Made by a program: the position numbers and the translations under genes. DNA of 38,781 bases from Burkholderiales bacterium (lineage in GTDB: Bacteria; Vulcanimicrobiota; Xenobia; Xenobiales; Xenobiaceae). The notes below the pieces were generated by a model. The model was given only the letters and a program-made list of their open reading frames with translations, was not told the origin of the DNA and searched no databases. Below, one piece after another: positions 1 through 38,781 of the stretch. The first letter of the stretch is position 1. Each line of letters starts with the position of its first letter. The stretch is from assembly GCA_012799975.1 (NCBI GenBank), contig JAAZKF010000111.1:1-38781 (forward strand), given 5' to 3'.

Positions 1-170
1 ACCCCACCCACACCAGGGTGTGGGTGGGAGGGGCCCGTCTGCGTCGTCAGGCGCACCTCTGCGGTGCTCACGTAGTTTCCAACTACGCTCCGCTCCTCAG
101 AACGCACGCCTTCCTGGCATCCAGACTCGCCTCGATGGCCTCGGTTCTCACGCCAGGCGGCGGATTCAGG
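1..170 (+). mobile_element. MITE copy 1 (long class, left end cut by window edge)
   Basis: Near-identical to 4472-4649 and to the reverse complement of 12316-12530. Ends in CACGCCAGGCGGCGGATTCAGG at 170. Carries the CCCACCCACACC-AG-GGTGTGGGTGGG hairpin (3-28). Confidence 0.9.
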
Positions 171-4471: not shown

Positions 4472-4649
4472 CCTGAATCCGCCGCCTACCGTGGCATTCG
4501 GCCGTCGAGGCGGGCCCGTCTGCGTCGTCAGGCGCACCTCTGCGGTGCTCACGTAGTTCCCAACTACGCTCCGCTCCTCGATGCACGCCTTCCTGGCATC
4601 CAGACCCGCCTCGATGGCCTCGGTTCTCACGCCAGGCGGCGGATTCAGG
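4472..4649 (+). mobile_element. MITE copy 2 (178 bp, medium class)
   Basis: 16-bp perfect TIRs CCTGAATCCGCCGCCT / AGGCGGCGGATTCAGG. Flanks are CTAGC (4467-4471) and CTGGC (4650-4654), a 4/5 direct repeat. Lies between divergent genes. Confidence 0.92.
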
Positions 4650-12266: not shown

Positions 12267-12315
12267 GCCGCAAGTATATCCAGATATATCCAAGCGAGCA
12301 AGAGGTAGATCTCAT

Positions 12316-12530
12316 CCTGAATCCGCTGCCTGGCGTGAGAAGCGAGGCCATCGAGGCGGGTCTGGATGCCAGGAAGGCGTGCATCGAGGATGCGGAGCGT
12401 AGTTGGAAACCACGTGAGCACCGCAGAGGTGCGCCTGACGACGCAGGCGGGTGCCTCCCACCCACACCCTGGTGTGGGTGGGGTCTCAACGCCTCGACGG
12501 CCGAAGGCCACGACAGGCGGCGGATTCAGG
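12316..12530 (-). mobile_element. MITE copy 3 (215 bp, long class)
   Basis: TIRs with one mismatch. Perfect 5-bp TSD CTCAT at 12311-12315 and 12531-12535. Contains the extra 12-bp-stem hairpin (12457-12482). Confidence 0.95.
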
Positions 12531-12572
12531 CTCATGCGCTCCCCGCGCAGTCAGGAACCTACCCCATGATGA

Positions 12573-13506: not shown

Positions 13507-13590
13507 CCTGAATCCGCCGCCTGGCGTGGCATTCGGCTGTCGATCCGGGCCTGGATGGCCTCGGTTCTCACGCCAGGCGGCGGATTCAGG
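13507..13590 (+). mobile_element. MITE copy 4 (84 bp, minimal class)
   Basis: 22-bp perfect TIR CCTGAATCCGCCGCCTGGCGTG / CACGCCAGGCGGCGGATTCAGG. Perfect TSD CGGGG at 13502-13506 and 13591-13595. Confidence 0.93.
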
Positions 13591-13649: not shown

Positions 13650-15248
13650 TCAGCGCCGCCCCAGCAGGCGGCGACGACGCAGGCGCCCCGGGCCCCAATG
13701 AGCAGTTGGAGCAGCGTGCGCCCGGGGCGCGTCGGCCGCCTCCTCGATCGCCTCACGGGCCAGCATCTCGTTGATCGAGCGCGCTGCTCGGCGCCCCTCG
13801 CCCATCGCCAGGATCACCGTCGCCGCTCCCAAGACGATATCACCTCCGGCGAAGACCCGCTCCAGGCTGGTGGACCCGGTCTCGGGATCGACCACGATAT
13901 TCCCTCGGGAGTTGACCTCCAGCCCCGGGGTCGTCGAGGTCAGGAGCGGATTGGAGTTGTTGCCGATGGCCACCAGGACGGCGTCGGCCGGAAGCTCGTA
14001 GGTGTCTCCTTCGATGGGGAGGGGGCGCCGACGCCCTGAAGAGTCGGGCTCACCCAGGGCATAGCGCTGAACGGTGACCGCTCGGACCCGGCCCGACCCA
14101 TCCCCCAGGACTTCCAGGGCATTCTCCAGGAAGCGGATTTCGATCCCTTCCTCCAGGGCGTGTTCGACCTCCTCGGCCCGCGCCGGCATCTCGGCCCGAC
14201 TGCGGCGATACAGGACGATTACTTCCTCGGCACCCAGGCGACGCGCCATGCGGCATGCATCCATGGCCACGTTGCCGCCGCCCAGGACCACGGTCCGCCG
14301 ACTGACGAACATCGGCGTGTCGCTACGCCCCGGATGGATTCCTCCCATCATGTTGGCCCGGGTCAGATACTCGTTGGCCGAGAAGACGCCCACCAGATCC
14401 TCGCCCGGCATCCCCGTGAAGACCGGAAGCCCGGCCCCGCTGCCGATGAAGATGGCATCAAAGCCATCCTTGTCCATCAGGTCCAGGAGCTTGCGGGTGC
14501 GCCCGACCACGAAGTTGGTCCGGAACTCGACGCCCATCCGACGCAGAAGGTCGATCTCGGCGTCCACGACCTCCTTGGGCAGGCGGAACTCCGGGATCCC
14601 ATAGCGCAGGACGCCGCCGAGCTTGTGGAAGGCCTCGAAGACGGTGACCTGGTGGCCCTCCCGACGACAATCCGCGGCCACCACCAGGCCGGCGGGCCCG
14701 GAGCCGATCACTGCGACCTTGCGTCCCGAGGGAGATTTTACCCGAGGCACGGGGGCCTGAGCCTGGTTTCGTTGCCAGTCGGCCAGGAAGCGCTCCACCT
14801 TGCCGATGGCCACCGCCCGACCCACATCCTTGAGGCTCTTGCCTACGGCGCATTCCTGCTGGCACTGCCGCTCCTGGGGGCAGACCCGGCCGCAGATCGC
14901 CGGCAGGAGACTGGTGCGCTTGATCACCTCGAGGGCCTCCGAGAAGTCACCCTCGGCCGTCAGCCGCAGGAACTCGGGGATGTCGATGGCCACCGGGCAC
15001 CCCTTGACGCAGGCCGGCTTCTTGCACTGGATGCAGCGCATGCTCTCCAAGACGGCCTGGGCAGGGGTCAGGGGCTTCTCCACCTCCTCCTGCAAGCGTG
15101 AGCGCTCGCCGGGGTCCAACACGGGAGGAGTCTGCACGGGAATCGCCAGGCGATCCTTCATCTTCAGGATTCCCTGGCTGCGCAGTTCCTCCAGCAGGCG
15201 GCGCGCGTCGGCTTCCAACTTGTTGGGGTCCTCGACGTAACGGGGCAT
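13650..15248 (-). CDS. nfnB: NfnB/SudA-like (GltD-like) Fe-S flavoprotein, large subunit of NADH-dependent reduced ferredoxin:NADP+ oxidoreductase
   Basis: RCIQCKKPACVKGCPV, ICGRVCPQERQC, GSGPAG, GGGNVAMD and FAGGDIVLGAATVILAMGEG motifs. Adjacent to an NfnA-like gene; no glutamate synthase large subunit nearby. Confidence 0.85.
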   Translation of the reverse strand: MPRYVEDPNKLEADARRLLEELRSQGILKMKDRLAIPVQTPPVLDPGERSRLQEEVEKPLTPAQAVLESMRCIQCKKPACVKGCPVAIDIPEFLRLTAEGDFSEALEVIKRTSLLPAICGRVCPQERQCQQECAVGKSLKDVGRAVAIGKVERFLADWQRNQAQAPVPRVKSPSGRKVAVIGSGPAGLVVAADCRREGHQVTVFEAFHKLGGVLRYGIPEFRLPKEVVDAEIDLLRRMGVEFRTNFVVGRTRKLLDLMDKDGFDAIFIGSGAGLPVFTGMPGEDLVGVFSANEYLTRANMMGGIHPGRSDTPMFVSRRTVVLGGGNVAMDACRMARRLGAEEVIVLYRRSRAEMPARAEEVEHALEEGIEIRFLENALEVLGDGSGRVRAVTVQRYALGEPDSSGRRRPLPIEGDTYELPADAVLVAIGNNSNPLLTSTTPGLEVNSRGNIVVDPETGSTSLERVFAGGDIVLGAATVILAMGEGRRAARSINEMLAREAIEEAADAPRAHAAPTAHWGPGRLRRRRLLGRR

Positions 15249-38648: not shown

Positions 38649-38781
38649 CCTGAAACCGCCGCCTGGCGTGAGAACCGAGGCCATCGAGGCGGGTCTGGAT
38701 GCCAGGAAGGCGTGCATCGAGGAGCGGAGCGTAGTTGGAAACTACGTGAGCACCGCAGAGGTGCGCCTGACGACGCAGACG
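38649..38781 (-). mobile_element. MITE copy 5 (cut by window edge)
   Basis: Starts CCTGAAACCGCCGCCTGGCGTG (one TIR mismatch) and continues as the reverse complement of the copy 1/2 core. Confidence 0.92.

Follow-up and report, generated by a model that had tools for sequence, protein, structure and literature searches.

The repeat at 12316–12530 raises the question of why a miniature transposon should carry so much internal pairing. The original prediction read it as a MITE with nested fold-back stems and suggested that these stems are selected at the level of RNA or single-stranded DNA, for example for RNase III processing or transcript stability. We asked which element moves this repeat, what it folds into, how widely its interior is kept, and at what stage of its life cycle the structure could matter.

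Copies of the Repeat in the Window

The window, i.e., the whole stretch of DNA analysed (38,781 nucleotides), is contig C340 of a genome (G000) of 3.65 Mb in 452 contigs, with a G+C content of 65% and a completeness of 96%; repeats may be unassembled in it. The window contains five copies of the element, with the following features:

1..170, rod strand −: copy 1, long class, truncated by the contig start
4472..4649, rod strand −: copy 2, 178-bp class without the module; duplication CTAGC/CTGGC, one mismatch
12311..12315, +: left target duplication of copy 3, CTCAT
12316..12530, +, the rod-forming strand: copy 3, long class, 215 bp (family norm 214/216), slightly decayed
12316..12337, +: copy 3 terminal inverted repeat (TIR), A end; the first 18 nt of the family consensus are identical to the right end of the IS1380 element
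12346..12360, +: copy 3 sub-terminal stem, 5′ arm; pairing more perfect in this genome than in relatives
12358..12455, +: conserved rod core, ~95 nt; helices with G·U pairs, between which lie internal loops (tandem G·A or A-rich); common to ERIC-type repeats
12394..12422, +: core apex motif; tandem G·A, G·U, C-G, 4–6 bp stem, variable loop
12454..12489, +: optional 36-nt side module, 11–12 bp hairpin
12490..12502, +: copy 3 sub-terminal stem, 3′ arm
12509..12530, −: copy 3 TIR, B end, likewise of IS1380 right-end type
12531..12535, +: right target duplication of copy 3, CTCAT
13507..13590, −: copy 4, 84-bp coreless form; perfect CGGGG duplication; site empty in the relatives G002 and G003
38649..38781, +: copy 5, truncated by the contig end; absent from the count of the original prediction

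The neighbours of copy 3 are an NlpC/P60-LysM gene and a Crp-like gene, each on the − strand. Genome-wide, the copy number is ~145, as judged from a count of ends (147 A-type and 143 B-type among 417 TIR-like matches).

Another dispersed repeat (60–200 bp), unrelated to the MITE, has a copy at 2300–2360 of the window and, according to BLAST, others in C167, C187 and ~20 more contigs of the genome. At 13826–14290, contigs from an RNA library show loose ends (14257–14291) and a joint that skips 429 bases in an Fe-S oxidoreductase gene (13650–15248), which likely stems from other organisms with the same conserved motif.

The Repeat Is a MITE of the IS1380 Type

The repeat is a non-coding MITE of the IS1380 type, with two right-type ends and a 5-bp target duplication. 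Target duplications of the IS1380 family are 4–5 bp long. Among the 67 complete copies with both flanks, 23 have an exact 5-bp duplication and 14 more have one with a single mismatch; shuffled flanks match at 0.001. The perfect duplication claimed for copy 4 was confirmed, and its orthologous site is empty in two relatives. The site of copy 3 in G001 and G005 is too diverged for reading a junction.

A partner IS is present in the relative G001. It is 2258 bp long, has a 4-bp duplication and encodes a protein that reaches 230 bits with the IS1380 model NF033539 (cut-off 180); this model is also matched in G003 (210 bits against the same cut-off). The consensus end of the MITE is identical to the right end of this IS at 18 of 18 nt and matches the left end type over 15 nt; therefore, both MITE ends are of the right-end type. 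Loose use of right-end-like sequences by the IS1380 family is described in the available part of PMC9330008. The genome of the window carries ten right-type and 11 left-type ends of the G001-type IS, mostly at contig edges, together with two fragments of its transposase that have 96–98% nucleotide identity. An intact IS1380 transposase was not found among its assembled contigs (PF13701, 0 of 1 genome); PF13701 was present in three of the five relatives searched. The partner IS has no core, as a covariance model of the core matched none of three IS1380 loci (L016–L018). Long TIR pairs spanning 0.9–3 kb in this genome were considered as an autonomous partner and rejected, the translated ones (C342, C108) containing host genes and no transposase. 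The MITE was found in five of the 40 relatives searched, namely four of the same family and G021, which has it as the core only.

Two unusual arrangements of the ends were observed. A 107-bp chimera (C29, 13691–13996) consists of an IS1380 left end and a MITE A end joined at a common 12-nt stretch, adjoining a transposase fragment. At C72 (14485–14561), an 11-nt piece of the TIR is repeated seven times head to tail, likely as a result of slippage.

The Size Classes Probably Form a Deletion Series

The division into three size classes of 84, 178 and 215 bp did not survive analysis of the whole genome. We detected 76 TIR pairs within 3.5 kb, of which 69 span at most 218 bp; their lengths are 213–218 bp (34 pairs), 199–209 bp (4), 178/180 bp (9, one of which, in C187, is spurious), 92 bp (4) and 63/64 bp (6), and the rest are scattered between 43 and 146 bp. 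Since lengths of 84 and 215 bp are rare in this set, they are not size classes of the family, and the lengths are better read as a deletion series from 43 to 218 bp than as three designed sizes. The pattern of the 36-nt module has 188 matches in the genome (both strands counted), none of which lies outside the element. The 92-bp class retains part of the module and is joined at a 6-nt repeat, AGACCC (overlap read by eye), and is therefore derived from the long form; its four copies, which are coreless, have one common junction, and two of them have perfect duplications. Among 46 copies, the module, the 2-nt block that distinguishes 214 from 216 bp and a two-base allele of the B end occur in mixed combinations, which points to repeated deletion or to exchange among copies.

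The consensus of this genome differs from the copies of the relatives mostly in the outer stems, and these differences are clustered, one-sided and mostly improve the match between the arms. Template switching is a mechanism that makes one arm match the other, and it is the likely cause of these changes.

The Core Is Predicted to Fold into a Rod on One Strand

Segment 12316–12530 is predicted to fold far beyond its shuffled counterparts (z of −7.5 and −8.5), and for the consensus without TIRs, z ranges from −8.1 to −9.7 on the better strand. All the stem sequences named in the original prediction are present (in copy 2, GGCCGTCGAGGCGGG at 4500–4514 and CCCGCCTCGATGGCC at 4605–4619), and the folding beyond chance was upheld; however, the nested stems had been written on the less stable strand, and on the other one, which is + at 12316–12530, the consensus is predicted to form a single unbranched rod with high pair probabilities. 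In its interior, the rod has five G·U pairs and several loops of tandem G·A, along with a single A·C mismatch. When TIRs are left out, the RNA z-scores of the two strands are −9.7 versus −5.4 for the 180-bp consensus, and −6.2 versus −1.2 for a copy from G005 (60 shuffles each). When calculated with DNA parameters, the core folds less strongly (z about −2 to −3).

The individual hairpins proposed earlier fared differently. The GCACC-tctgc-GGTGC hairpin occurs in four copies, but it is an alternative that competes with the rod, and the G021 homologue does not have it. The CGTAGTT-tcc-AACTACG hairpin is exact in copies 1 and 5, but copy 2 has one change and copy 3 one change that breaks a pair; in the apex of copy 3, one pair is broken, at 12411. 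The module hairpin does have 12-bp arms (12457–12468 and 12471–12482) and is also present in copy 1 and absent from copy 2, but the proposed 2-nt loop cannot close; the predicted hairpin has 11–12 bp and a 4-nt loop, and it stands at the side of the rod without disturbing it.

The suggestion of a structured non-coding RNA carried by the MITE found no counterpart in Rfam 15, which gave no matches in the window, none at E ≤ 10 for copy 2 and none at gathering score in 20 related loci. Comparison with the features of K-turns, SRP RNA, 6S RNA and DNA-binding sites led us to drop these readings, because the bulge is 0–1 nt long, Rfam is silent, and other families have an entirely different apical stem that still pairs.

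The Core Recurs in Other Lineages

The apex pattern was found in at least 122 metagenome loci, whose flanking G+C content ranges from 0.37 to 0.75 (109 loci measured). The arms and ends of these loci are unrelated in sequence, yet the rod fold is predicted for them; with a crude automatic method, a TIR was called in 19 of 70 metagenome rods. Among the matches listed, the motif strand is the more stable one in 102 of 118 loci with RNA parameters and in 106 of 118 with DNA parameters, and because both sets favour this strand, energy cannot tell RNA from DNA. A strand bias is also present in the mismatches. In 70 dereplicated rods (of 125, among the matches listed), placed in register on Watson-Crick pairs alone and scored outside the pattern-selected core, the ratio of G·T to A·C was 92:36 or 87:21, and that of A·G to C·T was 111:10.

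Covariation was scored in 22 of the 125 rods (among the matches listed), chosen for their CAAGG loop. Both sides change in 19 of the 31 pairs, and the score of 0.314 compares with 0.127 in shuffled alignments (0 of 500 reached it) and 0.056–0.103 in slid ones, where selection of the loci makes the apex columns invariant, the structure was taken from the element of this genome, and shuffling does not allow for kinship. RNAalifold recovered only ten apex pairs from the core alignment because MAFFT shifts some rows by one column. Across families, the loops are kept while the helices turn over. The core model matches 14 of 44 genomes of the class, and in some of these families a wholly different apical stem retains pairing, and the ends are different. 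Plasmids of Sphingobium, Shinella, Agrobacterium and other Alphaproteobacteria contain matches to one metagenome family; a direct DNA search of plasmids with the core of the window gave two short matches at chance level, and the exact core pattern has no match in viral contigs. The claim that the interior structure exceeds what transposase ends need was supported; the structure is also strand-specific and covaries across lineages. From these comparisons of sequence, we consider the core to be an uncatalogued, ERIC-related structure that appears to be under constraint at the level of the lineage.

The core also occurs in other shells. The copies of G021 have the core without IS1380 termini, and a 7–8 bp target duplication considered for them was rejected, since the motif flanking both copies is part of their outer stem. 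One TIR-less core (L006/L088, G021:C77) precedes a cluster of tRNA genes on the same strand by ~20 nt (tRNA read by eye). A second shell of ~181 bp around the same core (L324–L349, in G020, G024, G028, G034 and G038) has CCC ends and TTNAA-like 5-bp duplications; this AACCC-type shell may also be IS1380-like, although no partner transposase turned up next to its ends. For two other shells in the same class, no IS was found beside their matching ends.

Apex loci were also found in viral contigs. In 14 of 21 such loci (13 distinct; L294–L296, L299–L301, L303, L304, L306–L311), the rod directly follows the stop codon of an ORF of 400–420 aa with a common C-terminal motif. The rod strand is always antisense to this gene, and the arms differ between loci. 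All six ORFs scanned are HK97-type major capsid proteins, and the next gene encodes a head-tail connector in both cases tested. These clusters resemble gene transfer agents, and the rod may have been domesticated there or may mark a site that is targeted repeatedly.

The Core Layout Is Common to ERIC

The pattern of the ERIC core that was used for E. coli K-12 belongs to general background on these repeats. It is confirmed by the ERIC primers printed in the available part of PMC3867629. The 11 E. coli K-12 loci found by this pattern have the CAAGG loop, the apex and the AACG loop in the same order and with the same spacing as the core. Model R1, which was built without ERIC, detected nine of these 11 loci with filters off, in the right place and on the right strand, with 12–30 bits and a best E of 1.4e-5 in 43 kb, along with one extra match elsewhere. 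A filtered search of the whole E. coli genome with R1 missed those 11 loci, and all seven matches at E ≤ 1 carry the apex; two are ERIC-type elements and five belong to one family of ~150-bp rods with the same apex and bulge, which we take to be RSA. According to the part of PMC5172473 available, RSA has six copies of 150/151 bp in E. coli. The comparison with ERIC-type elements made in the original prediction is therefore closer than was claimed, because the core layout is common to both.

Inserted Copies Decay Regardless of Pairing

Decay was analysed in 46 complete copies of at least 170 bp, with C187, alleles present in at least four copies and a 6-column block left out, which gave 208 substitutions. 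Outside the TIR, 111 of 5036 paired site-copies (2.2%) and 53 of 2234 unpaired ones (2.4%) had changed (p = 0.67). Substitutions within this genome are thus random with respect to pairing, whereas across lineages the core covaries (0 of 500 shuffles). In the inner stems, G·U-type and A·C-type changes were equally frequent (22:22); in the TIR pairs, 20 G·U-type changes stand against six of A·C type, which runs against pure drift and is not fully explained. In 37 long copies the loss of folding energy was 9.4 versus 11.0 kcal/mol at random placement (p = 0.07; other strand, p = 0.19), a trend in modelled energies that leans towards weak selection on landed copies. Alleles found in two to three copies break pairs in 15 of 41 cases and singletons in 32 of 71 (p = 0.43), and therefore no selection on master copies was detected within this genome. 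Old copies have lost the apex.

Orientation was likewise random. Relative to neighbouring genes (orientation from a self-trained gene caller, 3291 genes), the rod strand was co-oriented in 116 cases and opposite in 102 (p = 0.38), and 40 complete contexts (25 tandem, 13 divergent, two convergent) match the background of spacer types. In 75 of 134 cases, the rod strand coincides with the G/T-rich strand (p = 0.19); within contigs, the skew measure is consistent (rho 0.62). Most copies are intergenic. In contigs of an unstranded RNA library, the depth is ~60–170 over the element versus 2–6 in its flanks, which is not above the expectation from copy number. Landed copies thus decay neutrally, regardless of pairing, and selection on inserted copies for RNase processing or transcript stability is not supported in this genome, substitutions that ignore pairing being an outcome that the original prediction itself had named as refuting its reading.

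Some individual copies deserve mention. One older copy occupies the same site in two species (L029 in G002:C79 and L059 in G003:C195) and retains the rod fold despite ~12 changes, one of which is a three-base change that keeps pairing. At C279 (14548–14760), a 214-bp copy plus its 5-bp duplication makes an insertion of 219 bp, in frame within a gene that by eye resembles a glycogen-debranching enzyme, adding 73 residues. Other copies extend the C-termini of an ispG-like (C87) and an RlmN-like (C436) gene (labels by eye), and each of the four size forms has open frames on its rod strand. RNA-library run X4 contains a full copy near-identical to 12316–12530 with A/T-rich flanks, unlike the 65% G+C of this genome, which may represent transfer to another host or replicon.

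The Rod Probably Acts during Mobilisation

We consider it probable that the element is an IS1380-mobilised MITE with a ~95-nt, ERIC-related, one-strand rod core that raises the chance of mobilisation. As judged from the ends, the IS1380 transposase would catalyse the move in trans. The core, predicted to fold on one strand into the ERIC-related rod, would be recognised as a folded single strand via its conserved G·A loops by a putative host or transposase factor at the mobilisation step; RNA would be somewhat likelier than single-stranded DNA as the recognised strand. Copies with an intact rod would seed the next burst, and landed copies drift; selection likely acts on mobile lineages, during spread rather than after landing. 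Because coreless forms also have target duplications, the core is not required for movement, unless these forms are later deletions, and it would be a booster. The size classes likely arise by repeated deletion and exchange among copies. Besides the folding-energy trend, the changes in TIR pairs and the alleles found in two to three copies, further observations speak against this reading: the partner IS lacks a core, the assembly of this genome contains no intact transposase, and the fixed place and orientation of the capsid-linked rods in 14 of 21 viral loci fit a role at the level of the host there.

A first alternative is that the rod is kept for a host function as a co-transcribed RNA, through RNase E/III cleavage, stability or attenuation, as is reported for ERIC in Yersinia; this is the reading of the original prediction. 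The one-strand signature rich in G·U and A-rich loops would suit an RNA, as would the position of the rods behind the major capsid gene in one orientation, the copy that still folds as a rod at the same site in G002 and G003, the folding-energy trend and the layout in common with ERIC, for which an orientation-dependent RNase E effect is reported in the accessible part of PMC2229807. Against this, paired and unpaired sites mutate equally in the 46 copies, neighbour orientation and spacer types match the background, and contig depth in the RNA library does not exceed the expectation from copy number, and we therefore regard a host function in this genome as unlikely.

Still less likely is that the core is itself a mobile unit, which another enzyme (HUH nuclease, reverse transcriptase or recombinase) inserts into palindromes and which only rides in the IS1380 shell. 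The same core does occur with unrelated arms and ends, and in G021 without IS1380 termini. However, neither a Y1 transposase nor a reverse transcriptase was found in the 96% complete genome, its core matches belong to the element, the duplications flank the IS1380-type ends and not the core, and no constant core boundary with a duplication of its own was seen.

It is very improbable that the structure is a neutral by-product, i.e., a fold-back of one IS end whose palindrome is maintained by template switching and copy exchange without selection: the two right-type ends, the clustered, one-sided, mostly arm-matching changes between this genome and its relatives and the drift of landed copies fit such a process, which likely explains the outer stems but not the core, where it is already largely refuted by the covariation and by a strand bias that a DNA-level process treating both strands alike would not produce, and where the loops are kept while helices turn over and ERIC, from another phylum, has a colinear layout.

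For the IS1380-mobilised MITE with a mobilisation-boosting core, which we prefer, the shell is an ordinary MITE and the core is what matters. A young family of ~145 copies allows a direct test of selection: landed copies drift, and the core is held across lineages. The question thus shifts from the benefit of each copy to its host to what reads the fold during spread.

Comparison with Known Systems

REP/REPIN-RAYT and IS200/IS605 hairpin elements differ from the repeat in several respects: Y1 (HUH) transposase was not found in this genome (PF01797, 0 of 1 genome, 96% complete), target duplications are present, and no replication-strand bias was seen (75 of 134 on the G/T-rich strand). For retro-elements, no reverse transcriptase was found (PF00078, 0 of 1 genome, in which repeats may be unassembled). 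The Rickettsia palindromic elements (RPE) resemble the repeat in the in-frame 219-bp insertion and the several C-terminal fusions; however, in-frame copies are the exception in this genome and most are intergenic. Chunjie, Nezha, Correia/NEMIS, RUP and YPAL, as described in the available parts of PMC10969869, PMC3184786 and PMC2229807, have in common with it the size range, terminal repeats, duplications, size variants and a stable fold; a core common to several families is not described for them in those parts of the literature. A search of literature that excludes most subscription journals found no report of a core common to several MITE families, and the MITE catalogue of PMC11602168, available in part, may include these families.

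The closest mobile relatives are IS1380 elements (ISEcp1, ISPme1) and their non-autonomous derivatives, as indicated by the 15–18 nt of end identity to the local IS1380, the 5-bp duplication and a partner protein above the NF033539 cut-off. Unlike these, the MITE has two ends of the right-end type, and its interior is no remnant of the local IS.

For the core, the closest relative is ERIC/IRU, a repeat known since 1990 that serves in strain typing. Both elements are predicted to form a single long rod whose apex is built alike (tandem G·A, G·U, C-G, short stem); the CAAGG and AACG loops occur in both, with nearly equal spacing, and both have open frames that fuse to genes (for ERIC, in the part of PMC2229807 available). 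ERIC/IRU is ~127 bp long with TA at both termini (PMC2229807 and PMC3184786, in the parts available) versus 178–216 bp, CC ends and a 5-bp duplication in the MITE, which is therefore not a member of ERIC. ERIC further has neither the 1-nt bulge nor the 2-bp helix below the apex and is found in a different phylum; no orientation effect of the MITE was seen in this genome. In Yersinia, ERIC is reported to destabilise upstream mRNA via RNase E depending on its orientation, and no DNA motifs other than the TIRs had been found in it, as stated in the accessible text of PMC2229807. The ~150-bp rods of E. coli, putatively RSA, have outer arms unrelated to those of the MITE.

A broader view, to which we give somewhat less than even weight, is that ERIC, the RSA-like family, the IS1380 MITE and many uncatalogued repeats form one cross-phylum superfamily built on a single core, whose folded RNA or single-stranded DNA, with its G·A loops read by a conserved cellular factor, would boost any shell that captures it and would sometimes be domesticated behind the capsid genes of phages or gene transfer agents. 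To this comparison, the present locus adds an IS1380 partner, tests of neutrality and a link to ERIC made by a model free of ERIC: the apex and loop layout of ERIC stands here in another phylum, in an IS1380 shell whose ends and target rule differ from those of ERIC.
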